Shown one piece after another: positions 6,074-33,454 of a stretch of DNA of 34,155 bases. This stretch comes from Kiloniellales bacterium (GTDB taxonomy: Bacteria > Pseudomonadota > Alphaproteobacteria > JBHICX01): contig JBHICX010000002.1 in assembly GCA_046759805.1 (NCBI GenBank), forward strand, positions 1-34,155. The letters run 5' to 3'. Within the stretch, counting starts at the first letter, position 1. The number at the start of each line of letters is the position of its first letter. The notes under the pieces were generated by a model. The model was not told the DNA's origin and did not search any database. It saw only the letters and a program-made list of their open reading frames with translations. A program made the position numbers and the translations under genes.

Positions 6074-6084
6074 CCGGGGTTTCC

Positions 6085-7389: not shown

Positions 7390-7392
7390 GCG

Positions 7393-10255: not shown

Positions 10256-11115
10256 TGCCAATCGATTCGTCGACATCCCAAGTGGTGGTCTATCTCGGCT
10301 ATCACAAGACCGCCAGCAAATGGGTGTGGAACAATTTCTTCAAGCGCCATTACCCGTGCCGCCAGGTGAACCTGTTCGAGCGGCCGGCGGCCGAGTTGAG
10401 AAAGACCATAGGCGGCACCGGCTCCCCCTTCATCCTGCGCCAGCGCATCGAAGGCGGCCTCATGGGCGGGGAGTTGCCGGCCCTGGTGGAGACCATTGCC
10501 GAGGCGTTCCCCGATGCCCGGGTGGTCGCCGGAATCCGCTCCCAGCGCTCGATGCTGCCGTCCCACTACGGCCAGTACGTCACCAACGGCGGGCGGCTGG
10601 GGTTCGCCGCCTATCTCGACCAGGTGGTGAAGACCAAGTGGCATTACACGCCCGTCCTCAAGGCCTTCCTCGAGCGGTTCGGCGACAACATGTTCGTGTA
10701 TCTGTTCGAGGAGTTGCGGGAGGACCCGTTCGCGCTCCTGTGCCGGCTGCGTGACTTCGTAGGCGCGCCGGAGGGCGGGCTCGACGACCAGGCGCTGCGG
10801 CGCGTCGCCGCCGTGCCGCCGATGAACCCGCAGCGCAACGACCTGGTCGTCGACACCATGCTGCTGTTGAACCGCCTGCGCATGCGTCACCCGAAGAACG
10901 CCATCTTCCCGGAGCTCCGCCGGCCGGGGCACGACCACATCCTGGTCGAGGTGGCCGAGGTTATCGCCAGGTCCTACGCGGCACGCTACGGCCGGCCGCT
11001 GCGCTACCGCAGGTTCGACGACCGTGGCGCCCTCGGCCCGGCCTATGGGGCGGAGAACCAGGAGTTGTCGGCGCTGCTGGATCGGCCGTTGCGGGACTAT
11101 GGCTATCCGAGCTAA
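10255..11115 (+). CDS. sulfotransferase-family protein
   Basis: Start ATG 10255 (TGATG overlap). 286 aa. VVVYLGYHKTASKWV is 5'-PSB-like and AGIRSQRSMLPSHYGQYV is 3'-PB-like. The upstream part of track ORF 9736..11115 is a shadow extension. Confidence 0.55.
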   Translation: MPIDSSTSQVVVYLGYHKTASKWVWNNFFKRHYPCRQVNLFERPAAELRKTIGGTGSPFILRQRIEGGLMGGELPALVETIAEAFPDARVVAGIRSQRSMLPSHYGQYVTNGGRLGFAAYLDQVVKTKWHYTPVLKAFLERFGDNMFVYLFEELREDPFALLCRLRDFVGAPEGGLDDQALRRVAAVPPMNPQRNDLVVDTMLLLNRLRMRHPKNAIFPELRRPGHDHILVEVAEVIARSYAARYGRPLRYRRFDDRGALGPAYGAENQELSALLDRPLRDYGYPS

Positions 11116-11131
11116 GGCGACCGCGGCGCCC

Positions 11132-12649
11132 ATGCGCGTCCTGCGCGATCTGGTGCCCCTGCTGCTGCTGGCGAGTTGGCCGTTCGTGGCGTTCCTCGCC
11201 GCGAACAAGGCGCAGATCTTTCGCCTCGAAGATGTCCTGGTTCCCTGGGGTGCCTACGTTGTTGCCCTGACCGCCGGGGCGTTGCTCGCCGCGCGTTGGA
11301 TCAGGGGCCTCTCGCTTGTGCGCGTCGCCATCGTCGTAGGCGCGCTGAGCGCCACCTTCTTCGGCTTCGGCAGCCTCGGCCACCTGCTCGGCCTCGCCGG
11401 CATCGAGCTCGGCACCGTTTGGCTGCTGGTCTGGCTGGTCGCCTTTGCCGCCGTCGGCGGCTTGTGCTGGGTGTTCTCGCGGCGGCCCGCCGCCTGGCTC
11501 GTTACCACGGTTGTGGCCGCGGCATTCCTCGTCTGGCCCAGCCTCGATCTGGCCTCAGCCTGGTTCACCGGCGGCAGCCGGCAGGCGGGCGAGGACAAAG
11601 TGGCGACGACGCAACCGGGCACCGGCAAGATGCCCAACGTCTACTGGTTCCTGCTCGACGGCTATGTGCGCGATGACAGCCTCAGGCGCTACTTCGCCCA
11701 CGACAACGGGCCGTTCGTGCAATTCCTGAGCGAGCGCGGCTTCCAGATCGGCTGGGCCAGCCATTCCAACTACGACAACACCACCTTCTCGCTCGCCTCG
11801 ACCATGGGCATGGATTACGTGTACCTGCCGGGTGAGCCACGCCCTCCATCGCGCGCTTACACGCGCACGCTCGCCGGCTTCAATCCGGTGGTGCGCAAGT
11901 TCCTGGCCACGGGCTACCGCTACATCCACGCGCCTTACGCCGGTTCAGCGAAGACCCAGTGCGGCGGCCTGGAGCACCGCTGCATCCGCGCCCGGCCGAG
12001 CGGGCGCATCCCCCTGAACGAGGTACAGGTGAACCTGTTGCGCTTGACGCCGCTGTTCCGGGTCATCCGCCGGCTGATGCCGGGGGCGTTCCGCTACGAC
12101 CACATCTTCATCGCCGACGTGATGGCCGCCATGCGCGACGGGGAGGCGGCGCCGTTCTTCCTGTTCGCCCACATCCTGTCGCCGCACGCGCCGCCGCGCT
12201 TCACTCCGGAATGCCGGCGCCTGGACGATGTGGCCGCCAGCCTCGACGTCGGCGAGGGGTTCTACGATCCGGTCCAGTTCCGCACCGACGTTAGATGCAC
12301 CAACCGGTCGCTGGAGCGGGCAGTCCGGGAGATCGTCGAACGGGACTCGAGCGACCCGATAATCATCCTGCAAGGCGACCATGGCTTCAAATTCCGCCTG
12401 CCCGGGGAGTCGGAGGGCGCACTCGAGGCCGCCGCCGACGGCGTCCTAGCGGCTCGCCGTCTGGCCATCCTGAACGCGATCCGCTTGCCTACGGCCTGCC
12501 GGGACCGGTTTTACGAGACCATCTCGCCGGTCAACACCTTCCGGCTCGTGTTCGCATGCATCGAGGGCCGCCAGCCCGAATTCGTCGCCGACCGGCACTT
12601 CCTTCGCCCTCGGGGATCGGAGGGGGGCCTCAAGGAAGTGCATCCGTGA
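11132..12649 (+). CDS. membrane-anchored sulfatase-fold (alkaline phosphatase superfamily, LtaS/EptA-like) hydrolase/transferase, paralog 1
   Basis: Start taken at ATG 11132 (MRVLRDLVPLLLLASWPFVAFL..). About 5 N-terminal hydrophobic helices, then MPNVYWFLLDGYVRDD (metal-site Asp), NTTFSLASTMGM (Ser/Thr nucleophile region), HILSPHAPPRF and ILQGDHGFKF. No C/S-x-P-x-R formylglycine motif seen. Confidence 0.75.
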   Translation: MRVLRDLVPLLLLASWPFVAFLAANKAQIFRLEDVLVPWGAYVVALTAGALLAARWIRGLSLVRVAIVVGALSATFFGFGSLGHLLGLAGIELGTVWLLVWLVAFAAVGGLCWVFSRRPAAWLVTTVVAAAFLVWPSLDLASAWFTGGSRQAGEDKVATTQPGTGKMPNVYWFLLDGYVRDDSLRRYFAHDNGPFVQFLSERGFQIGWASHSNYDNTTFSLASTMGMDYVYLPGEPRPPSRAYTRTLAGFNPVVRKFLATGYRYIHAPYAGSAKTQCGGLEHRCIRARPSGRIPLNEVQVNLLRLTPLFRVIRRLMPGAFRYDHIFIADVMAAMRDGEAAPFFLFAHILSPHAPPRFTPECRRLDDVAASLDVGEGFYDPVQFRTDVRCTNRSLERAVREIVERDSSDPIIILQGDHGFKFRLPGESEGALEAAADGVLAARRLAILNAIRLPTACRDRFYETISPVNTFRLVFACIEGRQPEFVADRHFLRPRGSEGGLKEVHP

Positions 12650-12699
12650 ACCGGTCATTGATCGCAACGGATCGGGCCTTTAAGAGTTGACGGCGGTGG

Positions 12700-13578: not shown

Positions 13579-13652
13579 CATTCGCGCGAACGAGTCCGAC
13601 ATTGCCGAGACCCAAGACGACGGCGCGGTTGGCCGGCACCGAGCGGGCGGTG

Positions 13653-15017: not shown

Positions 15018-15018
15018 C

Positions 15019-15846: not shown

Positions 15847-15893
15847 TCCGCCGGCCCGCCATCCTCCCCTGTCCATCGAAGGAGGTGCCCGAG

Positions 15894-16739
15894 ATGACAA
15901 CTAGGCGACCCTTCCTGATCGCCGAGATCGGCATCAACCACAACGGCGACGTCGAGCTTGCCAAGCGGATGATAGACGCCGCCAAGGACGCGGCGTTTGA
16001 CGCCGTCAAGTTCCAGAAGCGCACCATCGACCTGGTCTATTCGAAGGAGTTCCTCGACGGCTTCCGGGACAGCCCCTGGGGAACCACCCAGCGCGCCCAG
16101 AAGGAGGGCCTGGAGCTCTCGGAAGCCGACTACGTGGAGATCGACCGCACCTGCAAGGATTTGGACATCCAGTGGACGGCGTCCGCATGGGACCTGGAGA
16201 GCCTCAAATTCCTGGGCCGGTTCGACGTGCCGTTCCACAAGGTGGCCTCGCCGATGCTCGGCCACACCCCGCTGTTGCAGGAGATCGCCGCCGAGGGCAA
16301 GAAGACCTTCATCTCCACCGGCATGTCCACGCTCGACGAGATCGACCAGGTGGTCGATCTGTTCCGCAAGGCGAACTGCCCGTTCGAGCTGATGCATTGC
16401 AACAGCACCTATCCGATGCGCATGGAGGACGCCAATCTGGCGTGCATTCCCATGCTGCGGGAGCGCTACGGCGCCGACGTCGGCTATTCCGGCCACGAGA
16501 CCTGTCTGGTCACCGTCTGCGTCGCCGCGGTGGCGCTGGGCGCCACCTCGCTCGAGCGCCACGTGACCCTGGACCGCAGCATGTACGGCTCCGACCAGGC
16601 CGCCTCCATCGAATGCAAGTCATTGCGTAGCTTCGTGACCGCGGTCCGGGCGGTGCCGGGGATCCTGGGGGATGGGGTGAAGCGGGTGAACGACACCGAG
16701 CGGCCGCTCCGCGAGAAGCTCTACGTCAATGTCGCCTGA
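15894..16739 (+). CDS. NeuB-family nonulosonate (sialic/legionaminic/pseudaminic-type) synthase, TIM-barrel only (no C-terminal SAF domain)
   Basis: GGAGG RBS at 15881-15885 and ATG at 15894. PFLIAEIGINHNGDVELAKRMIDAAKDAAFDAVKFQKR is the canonical NeuB N-terminus. 281 aa, ending right after the barrel (..RPLREKLYVNVA*). Confidence 0.9.
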   Translation: MTTRRPFLIAEIGINHNGDVELAKRMIDAAKDAAFDAVKFQKRTIDLVYSKEFLDGFRDSPWGTTQRAQKEGLELSEADYVEIDRTCKDLDIQWTASAWDLESLKFLGRFDVPFHKVASPMLGHTPLLQEIAAEGKKTFISTGMSTLDEIDQVVDLFRKANCPFELMHCNSTYPMRMEDANLACIPMLRERYGADVGYSGHETCLVTVCVAAVALGATSLERHVTLDRSMYGSDQAASIECKSLRSFVTAVRAVPGILGDGVKRVNDTERPLREKLYVNVA

Positions 16740-17472
16740 GGCGATGGCGCATACGGTCTGCGTGGTGTTGGCGCGCGGCGGCTCCAAGGGCATCCCGGCC
16801 AAGAACCTGGCCGATTTCTGCAGCAAGCCGCTCTTGGCCTGGACCCTCGAACAGGCCCTGGCGGCGACCCGCATCGACCAGGTTTGGGTGAGCTCCGACA
16901 GCGATGCGGTCCTCGACCTCGCCCGGTCGCTCGGCGCCGGGACGATCCGGCGGCCGGCGGCGCTGGCCGGCGACGGGGCGAGCTCGGAGTCCGGCTGGCT
17001 GCACGCGCTCGAGGTCCTGGAGGGCGAAGGTACTACCGTCGACCTCATGGTCGGGCCGCAATGCACCTCGCCGGTGCGCCAAGCCGCCGACTTCGACCGG
17101 GCGATCGAGCGGTTCCAGGCGGAGGGGTTGGATTCACTGTTTTCGGCGACGCTGTTGCCGCATTTCAACTTCTGGCGCACCGACGCGCGCGGCCGGTTCG
17201 CGAGCTTCAACTACGATTACCGGCGGCGCGGATTCCGTCAGGACCAGCCGCCGCAATACCTCGAGAACGGGTCGTTCTACCTGATGAAGCCGGAGATCCT
17301 GCGCCGGCACAACAACCGGCTCGGCGGCCGGATCGGCGTCTACTGCATGGACTTCTGGAAAAGCTTCCAGATCGACGAGGCGGAGGACCTGCGCTTCTGC
17401 GAGACCTTGATGCGCGCCTATCTACCGAATGACGTCGCGGCGGCGCGAACCGGCCAAGACACGGGATCATGA
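16729..17472 (+). CDS. acylneuraminate cytidylyltransferase (NeuA-type CMP-nonulosonate synthetase), second copy
   Basis: 247 aa (alternative ATG at 16744). CVVLARGGSKGIPAKNL signature. Overlaps the NeuB-like stop by 11 nt if it starts at 16729. Confidence 0.85.
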   Translation: MSPEAMAHTVCVVLARGGSKGIPAKNLADFCSKPLLAWTLEQALAATRIDQVWVSSDSDAVLDLARSLGAGTIRRPAALAGDGASSESGWLHALEVLEGEGTTVDLMVGPQCTSPVRQAADFDRAIERFQAEGLDSLFSATLLPHFNFWRTDARGRFASFNYDYRRRGFRQDQPPQYLENGSFYLMKPEILRRHNNRLGGRIGVYCMDFWKSFQIDEAEDLRFCETLMRAYLPNDVAAARTGQDTGS

Positions 17473-19223
17473 ATACCCCAACGGATGGCGACCAACGTCC
17501 TGCTCCCTGGCTGATCGGCGGGCCGGGGCGCAGCGGCAAGACCACGCTCGCGCTGGCGCTGAACAAGGGCGAGGGACCGGTCGCCGGGTTCCCGGTGGAG
17601 GGGCTGTTCACCTACTATCTGAAGCGCCGTTTCCTGAACTTCCCGGTGCACCGGCGTCAACTGTTGGCAGAGTACCTGACCCGGCCGCGCTATATGGACA
17701 GCGACCGGGACGTGGTGCGACGGCCCATCGAGTTCTTCCACCGGCCGCTCACGGACATCCTGGCGCGCATCCCGGCGACCGTCCGGCACCGGATCGACCT
17801 CATCGACTGGGCCTTGCAACGCTTCGCCGAGGATAACGGACGGCGGACATGGGCCGCCTTCGACCTGCATCCCGAGTTCCGCTACCCGAGCTTCCGGCGG
17901 CGCATCCCGGGATTGAAGCTGGCGGTGATGGTGCGCGACCCGCGCCGGTCGCTCCACGACATGATGCATTGGCGCCGCACGCCGATCGGCACGCCGCGCT
18001 TCGAGCGGCGCTTCCGGCACAGCCTCGTCATGTGGTGCCTGGGGCTCCAGGCGGCGCGGCGGCGCGCCAGGCGCTATCCCGGCGACGTCGTGCTGTTCTG
18101 CTTCGACGCCTTGATCCGGGGCGAGGCGCAGGAATGCGCGCGACTGGCCGACGCCTTCGGCATGCAGGCCGAGGCGCTTCGCGCCGCCTTCGCCTTCGAG
18201 CCGGCGCTGCGGCCCGAGGAGGGCAATCAAGCCGACCACCCGGGGCCGGACTTCTCCGCGCCCTACCTGGCCGAGATCGACCTCTTGTGCCGGCCGCTTG
18301 CCGGCGAATTCGTCCGCCAATTCGCGGCACCCGCGGCCGCCACGCGGGCGGCGCGGCGCGGGTTCCTGCGGGTGGCGCGGCTCCTCCTCGCCCTCGGACG
18401 CGTCTCGCCGCGCCTGGCTCGCCTGGCCGCCGACTTCGTCTATTTCCCCGCGAACAGCGCCCGGCGCATGGGCAACTCGCTGCTGCGCGTGGCACGGGAC
18501 AACCTCCACGCGATCGGGGGTCGGGCGCCGGGCGACGCCCCGATGGGGCGCCGCCCCGGACGCCCGTTGTTCTTCGTGGTCGCAGGCGCGCACGGCGTCG
18601 GCAAGTCCACCACCGTCGCCCAATGCCTGCGCATCCTTGAACGCCGCTCGATCCACGCCGAAGCCTTCCACCACGTCGTCGATACCCGTGGCGCCGGGAC
18701 CGGATCGCGCCACGCCGCGGGCCGCGCCGCGCCGCTCGGCTGGCGCCGCCTGGTGCCGGCGATGGTCAAGCTGGTCCTGGTGAGCCTCATCGACGAGGTG
18801 CGATACGCCTCCCGTGTCCACGGTCTCCTGCGGCGCGCGCTCAAGTCCGGGAAGCTCTCGGTCGCCGACCGCTACGTCTACGACCGCTGGGTCGATCTGC
18901 GGATCAGGGGTCGTCCATGGACGCAGATCGCCTCGGTGCGCCTGGCCTGCATGCTCATGCGCAAGCCGCGGCTGGTGGTGGTCCTGGAGGACGACCCGGC
19001 GCAGATCGCCCGGCGGAAGTCGGAGCTCACGGTCGAGGAGATCCGGCGCTACCAGGACGACCTGCCGCGGTTCCTGGAACGGCTGGGCGTCCCCCGCGCG
19101 GTGGTACGCATCGGCGGCCGGGACCCAGCCGCGGTGGCGGAGGAGGCGGTGCGGCGGATGCTGGCCGCGGCCGGCGACGCGGTGACCCCGTTCCTGGTCC
19201 CGGTGAGAAAGGCGGCGGAATGA
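17469..19223 (+). CDS. two-domain P-loop protein: N-terminal sulfotransferase-like domain fused to C-terminal thymidylate-kinase-like P-loop domain
   Basis: 584 aa with an ATGA overlap upstream. N-domain: LIGGPGRSGKTTL (5'-PSB/P-loop, aa 15-27) and LAVMVRDPRRSLHDMM (3'-PB-like, aa 151-166). Arg/Ala-rich linker at about aa 285-365. C-domain: FFVVAGAHGVGKSTT (aa 368-382), ADRYVYDRWVD and VVVLEDDPAQIARRK. Confidence 0.55.
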   Translation: MNTPTDGDQRPAPWLIGGPGRSGKTTLALALNKGEGPVAGFPVEGLFTYYLKRRFLNFPVHRRQLLAEYLTRPRYMDSDRDVVRRPIEFFHRPLTDILARIPATVRHRIDLIDWALQRFAEDNGRRTWAAFDLHPEFRYPSFRRRIPGLKLAVMVRDPRRSLHDMMHWRRTPIGTPRFERRFRHSLVMWCLGLQAARRRARRYPGDVVLFCFDALIRGEAQECARLADAFGMQAEALRAAFAFEPALRPEEGNQADHPGPDFSAPYLAEIDLLCRPLAGEFVRQFAAPAAATRAARRGFLRVARLLLALGRVSPRLARLAADFVYFPANSARRMGNSLLRVARDNLHAIGGRAPGDAPMGRRPGRPLFFVVAGAHGVGKSTTVAQCLRILERRSIHAEAFHHVVDTRGAGTGSRHAAGRAAPLGWRRLVPAMVKLVLVSLIDEVRYASRVHGLLRRALKSGKLSVADRYVYDRWVDLRIRGRPWTQIASVRLACMLMRKPRLVVVLEDDPAQIARRKSELTVEEIRRYQDDLPRFLERLGVPRAVVRIGGRDPAAVAEEAVRRMLAAAGDAVTPFLVPVRKAAE

Positions 19224-19233
19224 GGGCGCGCCG

Positions 19234-20754
19234 ATGACGCCGGGATCGGTCGGTTCGCGCGCCATGACCTGGCTGCCGCTGCCGTTGTTCGGGGCCTGGC
19301 CGTTCCTCGCCTTCCTCAACCACAATCAGGAGGACGCGCTCGACTACGGCGCGTCGGTCCTCGGGCTCGGCGCCGCCTATGTGGTGGTGCTGGCGGTTGC
19401 GGCGCTTGTCGCCGGGCTTCTGTTCCGGCGCAGCGCCCGGGCGCCAGCGGTGAACGCGCTGTGTGTGCTGACGGTGATGTTCTTCACCTATCTGCCGTTC
19501 TCGCGGACGCTCGCGGCCATGGGCGTCTCGCTGGGGACGGTGCGCCTCAGCCTGTGGCTCATATGCGCGCTGGGCCTGGCGGCGCTGGCCTGGCGGCTGT
19601 CGCGCTTCCAACGGGCGTCGTTCGTCGCCGCGCTCATGGGGGCGTTGCTGGTCGCCATGCCGGGGGTGCAACTGGCCTGGTTCGCCGCCGAGGGCGCCAT
19701 GGGGGGCCGGGCCGCTGACGCCGGCCCGCGGGTGGTCGGGGCGCAGGCGGAATCGCCCCCCAACGTGTACTGGTTCGTATTCGACATGTATGCCCGTGCC
19801 GACGTGCTGGAGGCGTATCTGGGCTACGACAACGGCGACTTCCTGGCCGCGCTCGGCCGGCGCGGCTTCTTCGTCGCCGATGAAGCGGTGGCCAACTACA
19901 GCAGTACCAAGCTTTCGCTCAGCACCACGGTCAGCATGGACTACTACCTGCCGGTGGGGCCGAAGCTGCATCCGCGGCTGTGGACCGACCGCCTGCAGGG
20001 CTACAACGCCGTGGTCGAGCGCTTCCATCAGCTGGGCTACCGCTACATCCACGCCGAGCCAGGCGGGGTCAACCGCAAGACCCGCTGCGGCGGCCGCGAG
20101 CAGCAGTGCATCTCCGGGCCGACCCGGGGCGTTCTCGGCATCAGCGAGGCGGAGGCCGGCCTCTTGAAACTGACGCCCTTGTATCCGGTGCTGATCGTCC
20201 TGGCGCCCGGCCTGCTGAGCTTCGATTTCACCGGCCTCGACGACGTGATCGCGGCGGTGCGGCTGGATGCCGAGCGGCCGCACTTCCTGTTCGCGCACAT
20301 CCTCTCGCCGCACCCGCCGGCCCGCTTCGGTCCCGGCTGCCGCCGCCTCACACGAACCGCCTGGGAGCTGGTCACCGAGGATTCCCCGAAGACCCGTACT
20401 GCCTACCTGCACGACCTCGGCTGCCTCAATCGGTTGATCCTGGAGGCGATCGACGAGATCCTGGCGCGGGATCGAAGCGACCCGATCCTGATCCTGCAGG
20501 GGGACCACGGCCTTAAGTTCGGCGCCGCGCCAGCTGGCGCCAGCGGCATGGAGCCGTGGCTGGGGGTGCACGGCATCCTGCATGCCATGCGTCGCCCTGA
20601 ACGCTGCCGCGACGATGCCTCTTCGCGCTTTTCGACGGTGAACACCTTCCGTATCGTGTTCGCCTGCATCGAGGAGACGCCCCTGGACCTGCTTGCCAAT
20701 CGGGTGTTCCGCTACCGCGGCCGCACGCTCACCGAGCTGGTGGCGGATTACTGA
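19234..20754 (+). CDS. membrane-anchored sulfatase-fold (alkaline phosphatase superfamily) hydrolase/transferase, paralog 2
   Basis: 506 aa (alternative Met at 19264). Collinear with 11132..12649: GAWPFLAFLNHNQ / ASWPFVAFLAANK; PPNVYWFVFDMYARAD / MPNVYWFLLDGYVRDD; SSTKLSLSTTVSMDYYL / DNTTFSLASTMGMDYVYL; HILSPHPPARF; ILQGDHGLKF; NTFRIVFACIEE. Confidence 0.75.
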   Translation: MTPGSVGSRAMTWLPLPLFGAWPFLAFLNHNQEDALDYGASVLGLGAAYVVVLAVAALVAGLLFRRSARAPAVNALCVLTVMFFTYLPFSRTLAAMGVSLGTVRLSLWLICALGLAALAWRLSRFQRASFVAALMGALLVAMPGVQLAWFAAEGAMGGRAADAGPRVVGAQAESPPNVYWFVFDMYARADVLEAYLGYDNGDFLAALGRRGFFVADEAVANYSSTKLSLSTTVSMDYYLPVGPKLHPRLWTDRLQGYNAVVERFHQLGYRYIHAEPGGVNRKTRCGGREQQCISGPTRGVLGISEAEAGLLKLTPLYPVLIVLAPGLLSFDFTGLDDVIAAVRLDAERPHFLFAHILSPHPPARFGPGCRRLTRTAWELVTEDSPKTRTAYLHDLGCLNRLILEAIDEILARDRSDPILILQGDHGLKFGAAPAGASGMEPWLGVHGILHAMRRPERCRDDASSRFSTVNTFRIVFACIEETPLDLLANRVFRYRGRTLTELVADY

Positions 20755-20811
20755 GAGATCGCGCCCCGGTTGCCGCCCGGCGGCGGCGCGGGACCTTCGG
20801 GAAACCTTGCC

Positions 20812-21087
20812 ATGACCCAGTCGAAACCGGATCGCCAGCTTTGCCTCATGCTCGCCGCCGCCGTCGGGCTGGTGCCGTCCGATGCCCTGGCCTATATCGA
20901 CATCGGCACCACCGGCATGCTGCTGCAGTTATTGGTGGCCAGCGTCGCCGGGGCGCTGGTGGTGGTGAAGATGACCTGGCGGCGGATGCGCGATGCCACG
21001 GTCCGGATGATCCGTGGCGCCGGCAAGCAAGCCGAGACCGACCCGGGCCACCCTGCGGCGGACCGCAGCCATACCGAACGGCAATAA
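20812..21087 (+). CDS. small membrane/secreted protein of unknown function, paralog A (AY[IL]D.GT.GMLLQLL motif)
   Basis: Start taken at ATG 20812. 91 aa: signal-like LCLMLAAAVGLVPSDALA, then YIDIGTTGMLLQLLVASVAGALVVVKMTWRRMRDATVRMIRG and a polar tail. Coding is supported by amino-acid-level conservation with 25740..25979, including synonymous Leu codon changes. Confidence 0.55.
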   Translation: MTQSKPDRQLCLMLAAAVGLVPSDALAYIDIGTTGMLLQLLVASVAGALVVVKMTWRRMRDATVRMIRGAGKQAETDPGHPAADRSHTERQ

Positions 21088-21092
21088 GGGTT

Positions 21093-21117
21093 TCGCCGCC
21101 GCCTCAGCGGGCGGCGA
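21093..21117. terminator. GC-rich hairpin between convergent genes (possible bidirectional terminator)
   Basis: tcgccgcc (21093-21100) / 9-nt loop / ggcggcga (21110-21117). It lies in the 16-nt gap between the stop of 20812..21087 (+) and the stop of 21104..22279 (-) and runs into the latter's 3' end. There is no clear U-tract. Confidence 0.25.
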
Positions 21118-22279
21118 CGCCGCGCGCGGGCCTTCTGTCGTCGGTGGCCACAGGGCAGAGCCGGCGCAGCGCCCGCGCCGCGATCTGGCGCGCCGCCGGC
21201 CCATCCACCTCGCGGATATTGTTGGCGGCCCGGGCCCGGGTGATGAGCGCGTCGTCCAACCGGTCCGCATGGGCCGGCGTGACATAGCGGGACAGCGCCG
21301 CCCCGAGCCCGAGTTCGTCGAACCAGTCCTCCAGTGATTGCGGCACCGCATCGAGGGCGCAGCCAAGGCCGGCGGCGATCGGCTTGAGCCGCTCCGGGTC
21401 ATCAGCCGCGTTATAGCGCGCGCATTCCGCCAGCGAGAAGCTGCAGGCAAGCCCATGCGGGACCCCGAAGCGGGAGGTAAATTGATAGCTGATCGAGTGG
21501 GCGAGCGCCGTCTGGGTGGTGCCCATGGTGAGCCCCGAGATGAGCGCCGCCGTCTGCATGCGCCGGCGCAGCTCTACGTCGCCGGGCTGGTCGAGCGCGG
21601 CCTTCAGGTTGTTCCGCACGACGCCGATCGCGGTGGTCGCCAGTGCGTCCGTCACCGGCGAGTGATGCCGGTTCCAAACCGATTCGATGGCGTGCGAGAG
21701 GGCGTCCAGACCGCTCGCCAGGGTCAGCTCCGCTGGCATCGATGCGCACAGCGCCGGATCGTGGACGGCATGCCCGGGACGCAGGCGCGGGTCACTGACC
21801 GAGAACTTGATCCCATCGTCGCCCCAGATCGTCCCCCACTGCGTCACCTCCGAGCCGCTGCCCGAGGTCGTGGGCACGGCAATGATCGGCACCGGCTCGA
21901 GATCGTCCGGCAACGGTCGGCCTTCGCGCAGATGCGCCATCAGGGTCGCCACGTCGCCGTTTATGCCGGTGAGCGCCACGATCCCCTTGGCCGCGTCCAT
22001 GACGCTGCCGCCACCCAGCGCCACCACCACCTCCCCCGGCGGAAAGTCCTCGGCCAGGGCGATGACCGCGGAACAGCTCGGATTGGCCTCGACGCCGCCG
22101 ATCCGGACCGCCGGCTCGCCGCAAGCGCCGGCGAGCCGGTCCGGGACATCGCCGTCGGTCCAGAACTGGCTGGTCACCAGGGCCCAGGATCGCCCGCCGA
22201 TCAGTTCGGCCAGGGCCTTGTCGCAATCGGGCCCTTCGACCACCTGGGTCGGGCAGCGAAACGGATGCGTCAGAACCAA
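21104..22279 (-). CDS. iron-containing (group III) alcohol dehydrogenase; candidate phosphonoacetaldehyde reductase
   Basis: 391 aa with a TTG start. VVVALGGGSVMDAAKGIVAL is the Fe-ADH glycine-rich motif. ..AVPTTSGSGSEVT.. and His-rich metal-site region (LDALSHAIES, ALAHSISYQ). The start overlaps the stop of the upstream HEPD/MPnS-like gene by 10 nt. Confidence 0.75.
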   Translation of the reverse strand: MVLTHPFRCPTQVVEGPDCDKALAELIGGRSWALVTSQFWTDGDVPDRLAGACGEPAVRIGGVEANPSCSAVIALAEDFPPGEVVVALGGGSVMDAAKGIVALTGINGDVATLMAHLREGRPLPDDLEPVPIIAVPTTSGSGSEVTQWGTIWGDDGIKFSVSDPRLRPGHAVHDPALCASMPAELTLASGLDALSHAIESVWNRHHSPVTDALATTAIGVVRNNLKAALDQPGDVELRRRMQTAALISGLTMGTTQTALAHSISYQFTSRFGVPHGLACSFSLAECARYNAADDPERLKPIAAGLGCALDAVPQSLEDWFDELGLGAALSRYVTPAHADRLDDALITRARAANNIREVDGPAARQIAARALRRLCPVATDDRRPARGVAAR

Positions 22280-23649
22280 CGTTTCGTCTCCCGGACCACG
22301 CGCCGGCGGGTCTCGGCGGGGTAGAGGGCGAACTCATCGAGCACCGATTGCATGAGGCTCCCCGCCACGCGGACTATGGCCAGATGACCTTCACCCTCGC
22401 CGGTCGGTCGGGCGAAACGGTGGCCTATCATCGGCCGGACATAGGCGGAATCTCCAGGCGCCAGCTCGGTTTGGTGCCGGTCGCCCCAGTTGAGGGCGAC
22501 CGCGGCATCGCCGTAGTTGTAGACGTACTCGTGGAGGCCGTGGCGCAGGACCGCGTCCCCGGTGTCCTCGGCGAGAACCGTCACCTCGAATCCCTTGAGC
22601 CCCGGTTGATGCTTGGTGCGGGCGAGCTCGGTCAGGCGGTAGGCGGCCCGGTTCGAGTCGGGCGGAAAGGCCCGGCTCGGCGACCGCGCCCTGGTGCGCA
22701 CCACCACCTCCTCCTTCGGCGTGAGCTGGCTGACCATCAGGTCGGCGGGTCGCAGATCGAGCGCCGCGGCCAGCGCCGCGACCTCCGCCCCTTGGGGAAG
22801 CCGCGCCCCGGCGGCCAGCGCCGCCGCCGCTTCCTCGTCGAGGCCGGCGTCCACGAGGCGGCGCATGAGCTCGCCCGAGGTCAGGCTTTCCGCCGCCAAG
22901 GCGCGGACGATGCGCGCGGCGAAGGCGCCCTGAGGGTCGCGCAGGTCCCCGGCCAGTCGATCGAGATCCGGTCCCTCCAGGTGGCGCAGGGCGTCGAGCG
23001 CGCCACGCACCTCGCCGGCATAGGTGACGGCGATGATAAGCCCCAGTCGCCGCGGATCGCGGCTGGTGAAGCTGTGACGGACGAACGGGGTGATGTAGTT
23101 CGAATCGCCGGTGTTCATCTCGGCACAGTAGCCGCGCCCATCGATCCGCCAGTAGAAGTTCACCGCGCCGACGAAGAAGGTCAACTGATGCATCAGGTGG
23201 CCGTTGTTGTAGGCCACGTCCGGATTATCCGGGTCCGAATCCTCGACCAGGCGCAGCGGCCGGATCCACTCCGGCTTGAAGGGGGCGAGCCGGCTCATCG
23301 CCGTATCGCGATAGTCGTAGTAGGGCGTCTCGGACCCGGCCCGGTCCTTGCGCTCGAAGACGCGCGACGACGCGTCGGAGTCCGCCCTGCGCATCACCTT
23401 GACACCGTCCTCGGTATCGTCGGCTTCCACCCACAGGTCGGCGAGCGAGATCGGGTAGGCCTCGGCCATCGCGGTGAGCAGCGATCGGGCGGTCGCCTCA
23501 TCGGCCTCACCGGCGATCACCCGACGCACCGTCGCCGGATCCCGGTTCAGCTCCCGCGCCAGCGCCTCGGGGGTGCGTTTGAGGTCGTTGGCCTCGCTGA
23601 GGATGCGGGCGCCCAGCGCCTGAAGGTGTCGGGCCTTTCGGTCTTGCAT
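22270..23649 (-). CDS. HppE/HEPD/MPnS-family non-heme Fe(II) dioxygenase (HTH + double cupin); candidate methylphosphonate synthase
   Basis: Start taken at ATG 23647-23649, overlapping the upstream TGA by 1 nt. 459 aa. XRE-like HTH ARILSEANDLKRTPEALARELNRDPATVRRVIAGE. Cupin 1: VAYNNGH151LMHQ155LTFFVGAVNF165...GDSNYI186TPFVRH192SF. Cupin 2: HEYVYNYGD..LAPGDSAYVRPMIGHRF. Upstream ORF residues 23650..23832 are judged to be a shadow extension. Confidence 0.8.
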   Translation of the reverse strand: MQDRKARHLQALGARILSEANDLKRTPEALARELNRDPATVRRVIAGEADEATARSLLTAMAEAYPISLADLWVEADDTEDGVKVMRRADSDASSRVFERKDRAGSETPYYDYRDTAMSRLAPFKPEWIRPLRLVEDSDPDNPDVAYNNGHLMHQLTFFVGAVNFYWRIDGRGYCAEMNTGDSNYITPFVRHSFTSRDPRRLGLIIAVTYAGEVRGALDALRHLEGPDLDRLAGDLRDPQGAFAARIVRALAAESLTSGELMRRLVDAGLDEEAAAALAAGARLPQGAEVAALAAALDLRPADLMVSQLTPKEEVVVRTRARSPSRAFPPDSNRAAYRLTELARTKHQPGLKGFEVTVLAEDTGDAVLRHGLHEYVYNYGDAAVALNWGDRHQTELAPGDSAYVRPMIGHRFARPTGEGEGHLAIVRVAGSLMQSVLDEFALYPAETRRRVVRETKRWF

Positions 23650-24452
23650 CACGTCACCCCGGCGGCTTCGACGATGGTGAACAGGCGTTGGCGGGCGGAG
23701 ATCGAGGCGAGCCTTTGGTAGTCCTGCGGCGTATCGAGTTCGGCCCAGCCCCGCTCGACCAGCGCGCAGTCGACCCGGATTCCCCGATTCACGAGCTCCT
23801 GGATCATATCCGTGATGTAGGCCTGGCGCCATTCCGTCGCCTCATGGAACGGCGCCAGCGGGTCGAGGCGTCGCGCCAATTCCTCGAACACGTTCCGGAA
23901 GGCGGCCGCGCCGGCGGCGCTCATTCGCCACAGGCCCAGGAATTCGCCACAGTTGTAGGAGGCCGCGTCGGCGGGATCAAGATGCTTGCCGGCCTTGAGG
24001 ACCGCGCCGTCGGCGGAAAGGAACACGTTCTCCGCCTCCTCGACCGGGTGGTCGGTGCGGCCCTCGTAATAGGCCCGCCAGTCGGTGTCGACGGCCAGCA
24101 CGATATCGCCGGGGGTCTCGACGAGCCGGCGGTAGATCGTCGGCTCGACCCAGATGTCGGAGTAGGTGGCGATGACCGGCCCGGCCAGATGATCGCGGGC
24201 GCACATGAACGAGTGCAGGATGTTGTTGTCGAGATAGTCCTGGTTCTCGACGCGAACGATCTCGCCCTGGTCGATGCGGTGACCGAGATAGCCGGTGACC
24301 ACCACCACCGTCCCGCAGCCGACATGGCGCAGGCGCTCGATCGTGTGCTCGATGAGCGGCCGTCCGGCCACCGGAAGCAGGCACTTGGGAATGTCCTTCG
24401 CGACGGCGTCCATCCGGGCGCCGCGCCCGGCCGCGATCACGATGCCCTTCAT
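23649..24452 (-). CDS. LicC/PntC-like nucleotidyltransferase (probable cytidylyltransferase for a phospho(no)-alcohol/phosphonate)
   Basis: Start taken at ATG 24450-24452, preceded by GAGGTGAG. 267 aa. MKGIVIAAGRGARMDAVAKDIPKCLLPVAGRPLIEHTIERL..VVVVTGYLGHRI is the NTP_transferase (GXGTRL...PK) signature, most like LicC-type enzymes. Confidence 0.8.
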   Translation of the reverse strand: MKGIVIAAGRGARMDAVAKDIPKCLLPVAGRPLIEHTIERLRHVGCGTVVVVTGYLGHRIDQGEIVRVENQDYLDNNILHSFMCARDHLAGPVIATYSDIWVEPTIYRRLVETPGDIVLAVDTDWRAYYEGRTDHPVEEAENVFLSADGAVLKAGKHLDPADAASYNCGEFLGLWRMSAAGAAAFRNVFEELARRLDPLAPFHEATEWRQAYITDMIQELVNRGIRVDCALVERGWAELDTPQDYQRLASISARQRLFTIVEAAGVT

Positions 24453-24468
24453 GCGCCGCTCACCTCGA

Positions 24469-25653
24469 TCATTCGGCGCAAACGCCCGAGCGGCTCCGTG
24501 CGAGTTCGGCGATTGCGTCGGCGCCGCGAATGCCGCTCGTTCCAAGGTTGTAGATCCAAGTCTCCCGCATCCGGCGCGCCCGAGCGGCGAAGGAATCCGC
24601 GGTGTCCCACAGGGATTGTATCATCGCCGGCGCTTCGGACAATCGGTCCGGCGCCAGGACGGCCCCGATCTCCTCGCGGATGGCGACCTCCAGCGGCACC
24701 GCGCCCAGCCGCGTATATTCGGGATTGTTCACCTTGCGCGGCACGTCGACGAACAGCACCGGCCGTTCGAGCCCGAAGGCGAACTCCATCGCCACGCCGG
24801 ACCAATCGCTGATCATCAGGTGCGACCGGATGAGCGGGCCGAAGGAGGTGGTGTCCTCGTCGAGGGCGAAACCGGGACGCTCCTGGAAGCGCCCGTGAAG
24901 ATCGTCCAGAACACGCGGCGTGCGCCGGCGGGTCTGCGGATGCGGACGCACGCTCACCTGGTGCCCAGCGGCAAGCAGGATCTCCACCAGTTCCGCGCCG
25001 CAGGTCTCCAACAGCCCGTTCGCACCCCAGGACGGCGCCACCAGGACGCGCACCCCCTGGTCCGCGGGGGCCGGGCCGGGGTGTGCAGTGGCCGCGTCCA
25101 GGAGCGCGTCCAGGGGACCGTAGCCGTGGCGGAACAACCGCTTGGCCGGCAGGCCGTTGAGCCGCTCCCACTCCCGGGTCTCGGCCTCGTGATGGGGGCC
25201 GACGCACAGCACCGAATCGAAATGGTCGAAGGCGCCGCGGCGATAGATCATATGGGTGCTGACCATGGAATGGTGCAGGTAGACGTAATGCACCGGATGC
25301 AGCGAGCGCAGGAGGTGAAGGCTGTGCAGGTCGGGCATGGTCATCACCATGACGCCCGCCTCGATCGACCGAAACAGGTAGGTCTGCGCGGCCCCGTCGC
25401 CGATATAGAAGGCGAGGATGCGCGGGTCGTTGCCTCGAAGCAACGGATCCCGCGGGTCGGAGGTGAGGTAGCAGAGGGACTGGCCGTGCCGCCGGGTGAG
25501 CGCATCGACCACCGGCTTGAAGAACACCCAGTAGGCGGCGCCCTCGGAGTAGAACACCACCCGCCGCGCCTCGGGATCGAGCCTCTGCACCCGCCGGACG
25601 TCGCGCCAGGAACGCAAGACTTGCAACAGACCGCTCATCAAAGGCCGTTCCAT
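24469..25653 (-). CDS. TagB/TagF-like CDP-alcohol phosphotransferase family protein (Glyphos_transf-like)
   Basis: 394 aa (alternative Met at 25638). VLVAPSWG.., VRPHPQT.., SHLMISDWSGVAMEFAFGLERPVLFVD resemble the TagF catalytic-domain pattern (..P.W.., HP.., L[IM]xDYSS..xDF..l.kP.iF). Composition is normal, unlike the two overlapping Arg/Pro/Gly-rich alternative-frame ORFs. Confidence 0.65.
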   Translation of the reverse strand: MERPLMSGLLQVLRSWRDVRRVQRLDPEARRVVFYSEGAAYWVFFKPVVDALTRRHGQSLCYLTSDPRDPLLRGNDPRILAFYIGDGAAQTYLFRSIEAGVMVMTMPDLHSLHLLRSLHPVHYVYLHHSMVSTHMIYRRGAFDHFDSVLCVGPHHEAETREWERLNGLPAKRLFRHGYGPLDALLDAATAHPGPAPADQGVRVLVAPSWGANGLLETCGAELVEILLAAGHQVSVRPHPQTRRRTPRVLDDLHGRFQERPGFALDEDTTSFGPLIRSHLMISDWSGVAMEFAFGLERPVLFVDVPRKVNNPEYTRLGAVPLEVAIREEIGAVLAPDRLSEAPAMIQSLWDTADSFAARARRMRETWIYNLGTSGIRGADAIAELARSRSGVCAE

Positions 25654-25739
25654 CGAAGCGCGGGCGGCCGAGACTGGGTAAGTTTCGCCGTCCGGTCAAG
25701 CGATGCCGGTTCGACCGGATCCGGACGGAGCCATTCGCC
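25654..25739. promoter_or_regulatory. divergent intergenic region between the minus-strand phosphonate cassette and the resumed plus-strand genes; contains nested inverted repeats
   Basis: This 86-bp gap is the only sizeable divergent gap in the window. ccgtccgg (25688-25695) pairs with ccggacgg (25721-25728). Inside it lies the palindrome ccggt-tcg-accgg (25706-25718). No convincing sigma-70 hexamers were identified by eye. Confidence 0.3.
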
Positions 25740-25979
25740 ATGAACCATTCGTTCCGCCTCCTCGTCACAATGGCGTTCGTGGCCGGGCTCATGCCGTCCG
25801 AGGCGTGGGCCTATCTCGACCCCGGCACCGGCGGCATGCTGTTGCAGCTCTTGCTCGGCGGCGTCGCCGGCGCACTGGTGGTGATCAAGCTCTACTGGAG
25901 TCGCCTGCGCGAGGTGACGGCGCGCATCATGCGCGGCCACCAGGATAAGCCAGAGGACGGCCGCGCCGAGCCCGATTGA
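25740..25979 (+). CDS. small membrane/secreted protein of unknown function, paralog B (AY[IL]D.GT.GMLLQLL motif)
   Basis: 79 aa: MNHSFRLLVTMAFVAGLMPSEAWA-YLDPGTGGMLLQLLLGGVAGALVVIKLYWSRLREVTARIMRG.. Collinear with 20812..21087 at both protein and DNA level. Confidence 0.6.
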   Translation: MNHSFRLLVTMAFVAGLMPSEAWAYLDPGTGGMLLQLLLGGVAGALVVIKLYWSRLREVTARIMRGHQDKPEDGRAEPD

Positions 25980-27414
25980 CGGCGCCCGCGACAACCGAAC
26001 AGCCGGCGATGCAGGCCCAGTTGGATCCCGGCTCGTTCAAGGACCCCGAGGGGCGCGTGATCGTGCATCGGGGCGAGGTCTACCGCACCTTGACCGAGGA
26101 CGCGGCCCGGCGCATGCGCGCCAGCCGCGAGACCTTGGAGGCGCTCTGCCGCGACGGCCGGCTGATCGCCACCCGGCTCGTCTCCCGCGACGAGGCCGGG
26201 TTGCCGGCGGGGGTGGGCGGCGAGACCCTGTTGCACCACGAACGGGTGCCGGTCATCACCTATCCGTTCGAATGGTCCTTCGACATGCTTCGCGAGGCGG
26301 CGCTGTGCACGCTCGAGGTGCTGGAGACCTGCCTCGAGCGCGGCCTCATCCTTAAGGACGCCTCGGCCTACAACGTCGCCTTCCACCGCGGGCGCATGGT
26401 GTTCATCGACACCCTGTCGATCGACGCTTACGCCGAGGGCGAGCCCTGGGACGGCTATGCCCAGTTCTGCCGCGAGTTCCTGTTCCCGCTGATGCTGACC
26501 GCCTATCGCGGGGTCGAGTTCCAGCCCTGGTTCCGCGGCCGGCTCAACGGCCTGGCGCTGGCCGACCTGGCGCGTCTCCTCACCTGGCGCGACCTGTTGC
26601 GCAAGGGGGTGCTGCGCCATGTGGTCCTGCAGCGCCGGCTGGAGCGCTGGTTCGCCGGCGCCGACATGGAGATTCGCGGCCGGTTTCGCGACATCCGGTT
26701 CTCCAAAGGGATGATCCTGGCGAACCTGCGCGGCCTGCGAAAGGTTGTCGCATCGCTCGCTTACCGGGCGGCGGAGTCGCACTGGCTCGACTATACGGAA
26801 AAGAGCTCGTATTCCGATGAGGAACGGGCCCAGAAGGCGGACTTCGTCGGGCGAGCCTTGGATCGCCTCGCGCCGGCCCAGGTCGTCGACCTGGGCTGCA
26901 ACATCGGCGACCACGCGCTTATCGCCGCCGGGCGGGCGGCGCAAGTGGTCGCCGCCGACTTGGACCCGGCTTGCGTCAACACCCTCTACCGCCGCCTGGG
27001 CGCGGATGACGTGCGCAACGTGACGCCGATGGTCGCCGACCTTCTCAACCCCTCGCCGGGCCTGGGCTGGGACTTGCGCGAACGCAGCCCCTTGTTCGAC
27101 CGCATCCGCTCCGACGCCTTCCTGGCGCTGGCGCTGGTCCACCACGTGGCGATCGACGGCAACGTGCCGCTGGCCGCGTTCCTGGACCGGCTCAGTGACA
27201 TCGCCCCGGCGGGCGTCGTCGAATGGGTCGACAAGCAGGACGGCATGGTCCGCCGCATGCTGAGAAACCGCACCGACGTGTTCCCCGACTATGACTGGGC
27301 GCACTTCGAGCGCCTGCTGCGCGAGCGCTTTACCCTGGCCGAGGTAGCCGAAAGCCACCAGGGCCAGCGCAAGCTCTGCCTGGTGTTGCCGCGGGACAGG
27401 GAGCCCCCGAGCCC

Positions 27415-27418
<4 letters not shown>
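25976..27418 (+). CDS. fusion protein: N-terminal protein-kinase-like/choline-kinase-like domain + C-terminal class I SAM-dependent methyltransferase
   Basis: 480 aa from TTG 25976 (overlaps the upstream TGA; alternative ATG at 26009). N-domain: GLILKDASAYNVAF and MVFIDTLS resemble the catalytic-loop D-x4-N and the metal-binding Asp of APH/choline-kinase folds. C-domain: VVDLGCNIGDHAL (SAM motif I) and VVAADLD. Confidence 0.6.
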
Positions 27419-29262: not shown

Positions 29263-30020
29263 GGCGGGAGTTGCTCGACCTCGCCGCGGCCATGCGTTCC
29301 CTTTACGAGACCGGAGACTACTTCGTCCCGCTGGAGCCCGAGGCCGAACCGGACTTCGAGGAGCCCTACTGGCACCAGGTCGTCGACCCCGACGGCAAGC
29401 GCCGCAATCGCCTGCAGGAGCGGGACCGGTTCCTGGCCGACGTCGAGGCGGAGCTCGCCTACATCGACGCCCTGCCGCCGGGCCGCATGCTCGACGTTGG
29501 CTGCGGCCTGGGCTGGCTTCTGTCGGCGGTCAACGATGCCTGGCAGAAGCACGGGCTCGAAGTCTCCGCCTTCGCCGCCGCCAGGGCCGGCCAACACGGC
29601 GAGATCTTCGTCGGATCGCTGCTGGAATCCCCCTACCGGGCCGACGAGTTCGACCTGGTGGTGATGCATCACGTCATCGAGCACATGGCCGACCCGGTCG
29701 CCAACATCGAGGTCGCGCGGCGCATCCTGAAACCGGGCGGGCATCTGATCCTCGGTACTCCGGACTTCGATTCCGGCTGCGCGCGGCGCTTCGGCGCCAA
29801 CTACCGGCTGTTGAACGACCGCACCCATATCAGCCTGTTCTCGAACGACTCCATGCACCGGTTCCTGCGCGACCACGGGTTCAAGATCCTGCGCGTCGAC
29901 TACCCATTCTTCGAGACCGGCCATTTCACGCAAGAGAACCTGCGGCGCCTGTTCGACCGGGACCAGGTCTCGCCGCCGTTCTACGGCAACTTCATGACCT
30001 TCTATTGCCGCAAGCCCTGA
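29259..30020 (+). CDS. class I SAM-dependent methyltransferase (paralogous in C-terminal motifs to 3394..4383)
   Basis: Start uncertain: GTG 29259 (GTGA overlap with the ABC stop), ATG 29235 or ATG 29292. MLDVGCGLGWLL (motif I), LVVMHHVIEHMADP, and LKPGGHLILGTPDFDSGCARRFGANYRLLN (compare STPDIDSVPARKQGANWWLVN in 3394..4383). Confidence 0.8.
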
Positions 30021-33427: not shown

Positions 33428-33454
33428 CGCGGGGGATGGCCGGTCGGGAATGAG

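Follow-up and report, generated by a model that had tools for sequence, protein, structure and literature searches.

The 34,155-nucleotide stretch of DNA analyzed here (positions 1 to 34,155 of contig JBHICX010000002.1, forward strand, from the Kiloniellales bacterium assembly GCA_046759805.1; hereafter the window) carries about 25 genes, as judged from frame analysis of the GC content at third codon positions (GC3) and a mechanical listing of open reading frames (ORFs). Just four consecutive genes lie on the minus strand. In the direction of transcription, they encode a TagF-like candidate transferase, here called GPT (24469..25653), a LicC/PntC-type (PF12804) nucleotidyltransferase (NT; 23649..24452, 267 residues), a bicupin non-haem-iron oxygenase of the methylphosphonate synthase (MPnS) type (22270..23649, 459 residues), and a group-III Fe-dependent alcohol dehydrogenase (ADH; 21104..22279, 391 residues, TTG start). 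The coordinates and junctions given in a preliminary description of this DNA can be read directly from the sequence. The GPT stop codon TGA ends at 24469 and is followed by a 16-nt spacer, tcgaggtgagcggcgc, at 24453..24468 that contains the ribosome-binding site GAGGTGA; the NT gene then begins with ATG at 24452. The NT stop and the MPnS start overlap as TGATG, with a single shared base at 23649, and the MPnS stop TGA ends at 22270, 10 nt of overlap with the ADH gene, whose TTG start lies at 22279 with GGGAGA upstream. The four genes form one operon, divergent inside the surface-glycan locus of a high-GC bacterium.

Several features of this layout recur elsewhere. The 10-nt MPnS/ADH overlap is kept in the homologous loci L001 (11368/11377), L003 (11374/11383), and L169 (5382/5391), and the N terminus of ADH (MVLTHPFRCPTQV) is conserved from residue 1 in the same three loci. 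The longest mechanical ORFs are too long for NT (to 24545) and MPnS (to 23832), and the homolog alignments start at 24452 and 23649. The start of GPT is ambiguous between the ATG at 25653, which gives 394 residues, and that at 25638, which gives 389; the public call of an identical protein is the 389-residue form. L169, the nearest relative, shares 82 to 88% protein identity with the window and has the same succession of divergent neighbor, GPT, NT, MPnS, and ADH. Measured against L169, the ratio of nonsynonymous to synonymous substitution rates (dN/dS) is 0.37 for GPT, 0.32 for NT, 0.20 for MPnS, and 0.23 for ADH; all four frames are intact, and the catalytic residues of MPnS are present. All four genes are under purifying selection and, with hundreds of homologs each and low dN/dS, are not chance ORFs. 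The window has a GC content of ≈68%, and the cassette has values of 0.67 to 0.72 with a GC3 of 0.81 to 0.85 in its four ORFs. We rejected the idea of a horizontally inserted island, as both cassette GC and GC3 match the flanks. A promoter and terminator scan of 20600-26200 returned one intragenic promoter-like site and zero terminators, no more than shuffled sequences give.

The oxygenase had been described as MPnS/HEPD-like, and the family proves correct and can be narrowed. By phmmer, it matches MPnS (6B9S) at 278 bits (E = 1.2e-81) and HEPD (6B9R) at a lower 235 bits, with residues 71-520 of the long ORF aligning to residues 14-450 of the 6B9S chain. His151, Gln155, and His192, an iron triad that is invariant in 34 homologs, align with H148, Q152, and H190 of MPnS, and Phe165 and Ile186 align with F162 and I184. 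As stated in PMC11978286, which cites a structural study on this point, a 2-His-1-Gln triad plus the Phe and Ile are needed for methylphosphonate synthesis. The 84 related loci split cleanly into two residue classes, F/I(L,V) and Y/G. The former comprises all Nitrosopumilus loci, SAR86, Prochlorococcus, and an alphaproteobacterial clade; the latter consists mostly of Streptomyces, Kitasatospora, Amycolatopsis, and Nocardiopsis, plus a few metagenome-assembled genomes (MAGs) of Acidobacteriota and Planctomycetota. The window enzyme falls in the F/I class, and the label MPnS/HEPD-like therefore resolves to MPnS-type; identity as HEPD was rejected, since Phe165 and Ile186 stand where the HEPD type has Tyr and Gly. 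The protein collection contains more than 500 homologs. Among those with a named source, the nearest belong to MAGs of marine Rhodospirillaceae/Rhodospirillales (55 to 60% identity), and several homologs carry the Joint Genome Institute (JGI) name methylphosphonate synthase. By homology and these residues, the protein is very probably a methylphosphonate synthase, predicted to convert 2-hydroxyethylphosphonate (2-HEP) and O2 to methylphosphonate and CO2.

ADH contains the Fe-ADH and ADH_Fe_C domains in Pfam, and its best NCBIfam family is TIGR03405 (Phn_Fe-ADH) at 274.4 bits, 111 bits above the next family, in agreement with the family named in the preliminary description. The score falls short of the TIGR03405 equivalog cut-off (423.7 bits), though the protein aligns with the profile end to end (residues 9-354 to profile positions 3-352). 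It is 36% identical to the ADH adjoining a HEPD homolog in Streptomyces hygroscopicus (L075). Family and synteny together make a strong case that ADH is a phosphonoacetaldehyde reductase, predicted to yield the 2-HEP that the oxygenase would consume.

NT matches PF12804 at 63.1 bits (cut-off 27) and contains the nucleotide-binding GxGxR...PK signature at its N terminus, in which 'AAGRGARM...IPKCL' aligns with 'AAGLGTRL...TPKAL' of LicC. A family profile finds LicC (1JYK) at 8e-21 and PntC (6PD1) at 6e-13, with other enzymes, which act on sugar 1-phosphates, at 1e-10 or weaker. The AlphaFold2 (AF2) model of NT has a pLDDT of 93.9, and its top Foldseek match is PntC (6PD2; 1e-16, TM-score 0.72), followed within the top six by an inositol-1-phosphate cytidylyltransferase and LicC, with small margins over RmlA and GlmU. 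LicC and PntC thus lead in both profile and structure searches, and the earlier assignment as LicC-like holds. In PntC from Tde, Glu104 contacts the amine of 2-aminoethylphosphonate (AEP), with Glu196 as a second ligand (PMC6697681). In a sequence-profile alignment, and at this one site, Glu104 aligns with Tyr97 of NT, which is invariant in a 35-member NT alignment and so fits a substrate without an amine; Glu196 is not alignable. The family is annotated elsewhere as phosphocholine cytidylyltransferase or choline kinase (the latter by JGI). By analogy with PntC and LicC, NT is presumably a cytidylyltransferase, which would activate methylphosphonate (or 2-HEP) as its cytidine monophosphate (CMP) conjugate.

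GPT is the weakest of the four assignments. The preliminary description called it TagF-like; the family stands, and the strength of the match does not. The protein itself scores 15.4 bits against PF04464, under the 22.1-bit cut-off, and neither the single sequence nor a 37-member family profile finds any match among Protein Data Bank (PDB) sequences, so that the TagF assignment rests on fold and Pfam-family evidence. Of 37 family members at 47 to 82% identity, 31 do match PF04464 (best E = 5.8e-10), with no competing Pfam family. The AF2 model (pLDDT 93.9) retrieves TagF first in Foldseek (3L7K; E = 2.5e-12, TM-score 0.59) and second (3L7I; 9.4e-11), ahead of the next glycosyltransferase-B (GT-B) enzyme at 1.5e-9, and the TagF-like capsule polymerases 8A0C and 8QOY are also among the matches. 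Three histidines, His128, His134, and His238, are invariant in the family; the catalytic histidine pair of TagF is reportedly H444 and H584. A hydropathy scan of GPT gave no transmembrane segments. We treat the protein as a probable soluble GT-B enzyme from a divergent TagF/Glyphos_transf (PF04464) subfamily. No gene of the window matches PF01467, the family of TagD-type CDP-glycerol synthases, so that GPT has in the LicC-like NT its sole neighbor able to provide an activated donor. This and Tyr97 of NT are small points in favor of a donor other than AEP or glycerol phosphate.

To place the cassette among its relatives, MPnS/HEPD homologs were surveyed by neighborhood, as the preliminary description had proposed. 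The survey comprised 60 loci flanked on each side by at least 3 kb, 45 of them MPnS-type and 15 HEPD-type, and features were scored within ±10 kb. NT is present in 38/45 MPnS-type loci, immediately upstream on the same strand in 23/45, and in neither arrangement in any of the 15 HEPD-type loci. GPT is likewise present in 16/45 and 0/15. ADH accompanies both classes of 2-HEP-consuming enzyme (42/45 and 14/15), as does PEP mutase (PepM; 32/45 and 13/15). The Fisher p values of 3e-9 for NT and 0.006 for GPT are optimistic, as the loci are not phylogenetically independent. The loci that combine GPT and MPnS come from Alphaproteobacteria, Chloroflexia, Planctomycetota, Gemmatimonadota, and Berkiella, and GPT is often the gene that opens the operon; the order in Chloroflexia is GPT, PepM, NT, MPnS, phosphonopyruvate decarboxylase (Ppd), ADH. 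The fullest cassette is that of L001 and L002 (61% identity), which runs GPT, a PepM::NT fusion, Ppd, NT, MPnS, and ADH, with a sulfatase-family gene, a conserved divergent neighbor of 437 residues, and NeuB nearby; the GPT ortholog that opens the L001 cassette is 47% identical to that of the window. Two LicC-like NT domains are thus found in some MPnS cassettes (in L001/L002, PepM-fused at 6364-8025 and stand-alone upstream of MPnS at 9238-10014; also in L087), an arrangement that hints that two different phosphonates may be nucleotide-activated in one pathway.

A second survey, centered on GPT, covered 80 metagenome loci, 36 of them with at least 3 kb downstream. A LicC-like NT is found in 27/36 and NeuB in 0/36; on the latter count, a role for GPT as a nonulosonic-acid transferase was rejected. 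One locus, L086, has NT alone beside GPT, and another, L087, the full phosphonate set. The L086 pair lies between insertion sequence/transposase genes on both sides (3514-6176 and 9429-10613), with an Asn-synthase fragment upstream, a context that suggests that the GPT-NT pair may be mobilized or disrupted as a unit. Across both surveys, the robust units are NT-MPnS-ADH and GPT-NT, and the window joins the two.

These results are consistent with the following pathway. ADH would reduce phosphonoacetaldehyde to 2-HEP, as its family and synteny suggest, and MPnS, by homology to the solved enzyme and its five diagnostic residues, would convert 2-HEP to methylphosphonate and CO2. NT would then combine cytidine triphosphate (CTP) with the phosphonate, predicted to be methylphosphonate, to give CMP-methylphosphonate, and possibly also CMP-2-HEP. 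In the last step, GPT would hand the methylphosphonyl group of CMP-methylphosphonate to a hydroxyl on a glycan intermediate in the cytoplasm, releasing CMP, with the same leaving-group chemistry as in CDP-glycerol glycerophosphotransferases. The adjacent ABC exporter, for one, may then carry the decorated glycan out of the cell. Family, residues, and synteny together give strong grounds for the ADH and MPnS steps; those of NT and GPT are drawn from linkage and analogy. The general logic set out in the preliminary description, from phosphonoacetaldehyde through 2-HEP and a C1 phosphonate to nucleotide activation and transfer, fits this evidence. The cassette very probably makes methylphosphonate, and it probably activates this product and attaches it to a cell-surface glycan. 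For the four-gene pathway as a whole, with methylphosphonate made, CMP-activated, and transferred to the glycan by GPT, our confidence is moderate, and we lean toward accepting it.

Several observations weigh against this pathway. The literature searched contained no report of CMP-methylphosphonate. The Pfam score of GPT is below threshold and its PDB search empty, and the survey p values overstate the association, as noted above. Within the clade of the window (MPnS identity of 49% or more, flanks of 8 kb or more on each side, n = 13), GPT occurs in only 2/13 loci. Just 10/36 GPT-centered loci have any carbon-phosphorus (C-P) gene in the available flank, and the GPT family is therefore not phosphonate-specific; what it follows is the LicC-like NT, and not C-P genes in themselves. 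At L085, GPT has neither NT nor C-P genes nearby. The Nitrosopumilus loci, from which methylphosphonate esters were originally inferred, conversely have NT and no GPT, and another transferase must therefore exist there. Finally, no called gene in the 34-kb window has a Pfam match to PepM or to thiamine pyrophosphate enzymes such as Ppd.

This last point bears on where the substrate comes from. A tblastn search of the window with PepM and Ppd of L001 gave a match to the NT domain only. The C-P bond must be made outside the window, because PepM and Ppd are not in it, and the 'complete decoration arm' claimed in the preliminary description is in that respect incomplete. The arrangement is not peculiar to this stretch: PepM and Ppd are both absent within ±10 kb in 13/45 MPnS-type loci (≈29%), with ADH retained, and in 2/15 HEPD-type loci, and in the clade of the window PepM is linked in 4/13. 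In the cultured Thalassospiraceae strain LMO-JJ14, whose genome is complete (CP134604.1), the NT-MPnS-ADH triad (at 518764-539573) is accompanied by a sulfatase-family gene, and neither PepM nor GPT was seen within 10 kb. Loci listed as PepM/Ppd-less are L003-L012, L016, L019, L021, L022, L025, and L168. A joint proposal can be framed from these data, namely, that GPT is the first methylphosphonyl transferase to be identified, esterifying a surface glycan by way of a new nucleotide, CMP-methylphosphonate, and that PepM/Ppd-less triads draw their phosphonoacetaldehyde from scavenged AEP instead of de novo C-P bond formation. We put this forward tentatively, as less likely than not.

The concept of such a pathway is known. 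Neighborhoods of mpnS with nucleotidyltransferase and arylsulfatase-like genes have been read as making methylphosphonate esters on polysaccharide, with Rhodospirillales among the MPnS hosts (PMC9381506), and the novelty that the preliminary description attached to a methylphosphonate-esterified polysaccharide was accordingly overstated. What is new here is the TagF-family candidate and the frequent lack of linked PepM and Ppd. The clusters of Nitrosopumilus maritimus and of marine Pelagibacterales and Rhodospirillales described in that work share with the window the His/Gln/His plus Phe/Ile type of MPnS, a homologous LicC-like NT (36-38% identity between Nitrosopumilus and the window), sulfatase-family neighbors, and an inferred product, a methylphosphonate ester on a surface polymer. 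They differ in other respects. The MPnS of the window is just ≈35-40% identical to the archaeal enzymes, its ADH is bacterial and TIGR03405-like with weak similarity (23-30%) to the archaeal ADH, and a TagF-family gene absent from the Nitrosopumilus loci heads its operon. In contrast to the Nitrosopumilus cluster, moreover, the window cassette has no linked PepM or Ppd and is itself embedded in a glycan locus of nonulosonic-acid type.

Three further systems offer partial parallels. In the Pnt pathway, PntC activates AEP as a CMP conjugate, with LicD-like transferases presumed to act downstream (Rice et al. 2019; PMC6697681). The window resembles it in having a PF12804 cytidylyltransferase, with PntC as its best structural match, that would supply a CMP-phosphonate for transfer to a surface glycan, whereas its predicted substrate is methylphosphonate or 2-HEP rather than AEP (Glu104 to Tyr97), no AEP transaminase is present in the window system, and the candidate transferase belongs to the TagF family (GT-B) and not the LicD family. 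The TagD/TagF module of wall teichoic acid synthesis likewise has a nucleotidyltransferase gene adjoining a PF04464-family GT-B gene, TagF is the best fold match of GPT, and the chemistry proposed for GPT, in which a hydroxyl attacks a CMP-linked donor at phosphorus and displaces CMP, is the same. Here, however, the nucleotidyltransferase is of LicC type (PF12804) and not TagD type (PF01467), GPT falls under the PF04464 threshold with no detectable pairwise similarity to TagF, and the host is Gram-negative. GPT is a single-domain protein of ≈390 residues without transmembrane segments in the hydropathy scan, and it probably decorates rather than polymerizes. HEPD of phosphinothricin-type pathways shares with the window MPnS the bicupin fold, the substrate 2-HEP, and a paired Fe-ADH phosphonoacetaldehyde reductase, but it has Tyr and Gly in place of Phe165 and Ile186, and its loci contain neither NT nor GPT (0/15). 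The literature searched contained no link between the TagF family or glycerophosphotransferases and phosphonate transfer, which is no proof of absence.

The main rival to transfer by GPT keeps the first three steps, in which methylphosphonate is made and activated, and assigns the transfer to a different enzyme, either a membrane-anchored, LtaS/EptA-like member of the sulfatase/alkaline-phosphatase superfamily or some other protein. GPT would then add a different phospho-substituent or serve the glycan pathway as a plain GT-B glycosyltransferase. The window encodes two such superfamily proteins, both on the plus strand. The first (19234..20754; weak PF00884 match, E = 2e-4) has an N-terminal multi-transmembrane block at about residues 44-161 followed by a catalytic domain and is 29% identical to the product of the sulfatase gene flanking the L001 cassette; homologs lie near MPnS in L005, L007, L018, L024, L028, L045, L048, and L052, and a Pfam sulfatase gene was called near MPnS in L003 and L168. 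The second, a membrane-anchored paralog (11024..12649), was found by tblastn at 30% identity to the L001 sulfatase, with a transmembrane block at about residues 90-228 of its stop-to-stop frame and no Pfam match. Neither paralog has a PDB or NCBIfam match, and both show an LtaS/EptA-like layout. The 19234..20754 protein is a further candidate, either for the transfer itself or for subsequent remodeling.

That sulfatase-family genes flank many MPnS cassettes (L001, L005, L007, L018, L024, L028, and L168), and that arylsulfatase-like genes are listed in published neighborhoods, agrees with transfer by such an enzyme, as do the presence of NT without GPT in Nitrosopumilus, the scarcity of GPT in the closest clade of the window, and the Foldseek scores of GPT for TagF, which are only modestly above those for other GT-B enzymes at similar TM-scores of ≈0.6. 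LtaS/EptA-type enzymes take lipids and not nucleotides as donors and work at the outer face of the membrane. Transfer by one of them would leave the NT product without a consumer. GPT, moreover, heads the operon with merely the 16-nt ribosome-binding-site spacer before NT, members of its family have a LicC-like NT beside them or close by in 27/36 loci and NeuB in none, and the sole Pfam family matched by its relatives is that of TagF. We consider transfer by a sulfatase-superfamily enzyme unlikely, although it is the strongest competitor to the four-gene pathway.

NT and GPT could instead be a generic phospho-alcohol pair, handling phosphocholine, phosphoglycerol, or phosphoethanolamine and unrelated to the phosphonate, with MPnS and ADH giving free methylphosphonate for storage, signaling, or export as a small molecule. 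This would suit the 26/36 GPT-centered loci with no C-P gene in the available flank, the annotation of the NT family as phosphocholine cytidylyltransferase or choline kinase, and the fact that LicC is the best sequence match of NT. It sits poorly with the overlap of the NT stop and the MPnS start and with the distribution of NT, which is found in 38/45 MPnS-type loci (directly upstream in 23/45) and in 0/15 loci of the HEPD type, whose products are small molecules. PntC is the best structural match of NT, and neither a choline/ethanolamine kinase nor a glycerol-3-phosphate cytidylyltransferase was found in the window. On this evidence, a generic pair appears improbable.

Slightly less probable again is an order of events in which NT acts before the oxygenase, as in Fom1. 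The glycan would then receive 2-HEP from CMP-2-HEP, or MPnS would have the CMP conjugate as its substrate. The gene order, NT before MPnS, would agree with this, and the two NT domains of L001-type clusters leave room for two activated species, but the primary work on MPnS reportedly characterized the enzyme on free 2-HEP. CMP-2-HEP itself has a precedent as the product of the Fom1 cytidylyltransferase in fosfomycin synthesis, as cited in PMC6697681, although that enzyme, by the account given there, belongs to another family, PF01467 rather than PF12804. A cassette in decay or already inactive, as the lack of PepM and Ppd in the window might suggest, is scarcely credible given intact frames, catalytic residues in place, dN/dS of 0.20 to 0.37 against L169 for all four genes, and the recurrence of the PepM-less arrangement in 13/45 MPnS-type loci, a complete genome included.

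Aerobic methane production, the process behind the ocean methane paradox, is accepted to start from the methylphosphonate esters of marine dissolved organic matter. To our knowledge, no enzyme has been identified that carries out the activation of methylphosphonate or its coupling to macromolecules. The present analysis supplies two testable candidates, an NT that occurs with MPnS-type and never with HEPD-type oxygenases and a TagF-family transferase paired with that NT. The question of attachment becomes a concrete two-enzyme experiment, and a cultured carrier of the NT-MPnS-ADH triad exists in Thalassospiraceae LMO-JJ14. If the four-gene pathway is right, GPT would define the missing step by which marine high-molecular-weight organic matter acquires methylphosphonate. 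Should the candidates fail, what is left is one more mpnS neighborhood in a marine alphaproteobacterium. A second question to come out of the survey is the origin of phosphonoacetaldehyde in the many loci without PepM. If salvage is the answer, these cassettes would convert one environmental phosphonate into another.

The remaining genes of the window are on the plus strand, and their family assignments identify a surface-glycan pathway of nonulosonic-acid type. They include two DegT aminotransferases (2165-3397 and 6013-7389), a methyltransferase (3349-4383), two CTP_transf_3 genes resembling CMP-sugar synthetases (4359-5093 and 16690-17472), TIGR04396/BFO_1060-like proteins, which are glycosyltransferases (7390-9749), two PhyH dioxygenases (12691-13578 and 14875-15846), a GT-C/PMT_2-like membrane protein (13368-15017), and NeuB (15639-16739). 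ABC exporter genes also belong to this glycan locus and are adjacent to the cassette. NeuB is likewise found near the L001 MPnS cassette and in 12/45 MPnS-type loci. Between the glycan genes and the cassette lies a gene for a 596-residue protein with a P-loop (AAA_16; 17433-19223), and a 110-residue protein with two transmembrane segments (20755-21087) is encoded convergently with ADH, its gene ending 16 nt from the ADH stop.

On the other side of the cassette, a divergent plus-strand gene (25976..27418) encodes a soluble protein of ≈480 residues with weak Methyltransf_25 and TehB-like matches. It has an S-adenosylmethionine (SAM)-methyltransferase-like motif at residues 300-367 and is 48% identical to the product of the gene beside the L001 cassette, and L169 has a divergent gene at the equivalent position. 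We regard this gene as only possibly part of the system.

Farther out, at 2-1231 on the plus strand, the window edge truncates an L-amino-acid ligase gene (LAL_C2, ATP-grasp), of which the C-terminal part is included, and an RraA-like/aldolase-family gene comes next. Such a pairing is more usual for small-molecule products, or ones decorated with amino acids, than for the synthesis of a plain glycan. A glucose/sorbosone-dehydrogenase-like beta-propeller match (PF07995) falls at 30020-31783 (plus strand); the GC3 signal of this stretch was too weak for a call by frame analysis, whereas its neighbors were all called, which may reflect atypical codon usage or a frameshifted gene. The last gene, at 33428-34153 on the plus strand, encodes a radical-SAM protein that is cut by the window end and whose N terminus is too short for a B12-binding domain; B12-binding radical-SAM genes lie near the MPnS triad in L003 and L004 and near the GPT homolog in L085.

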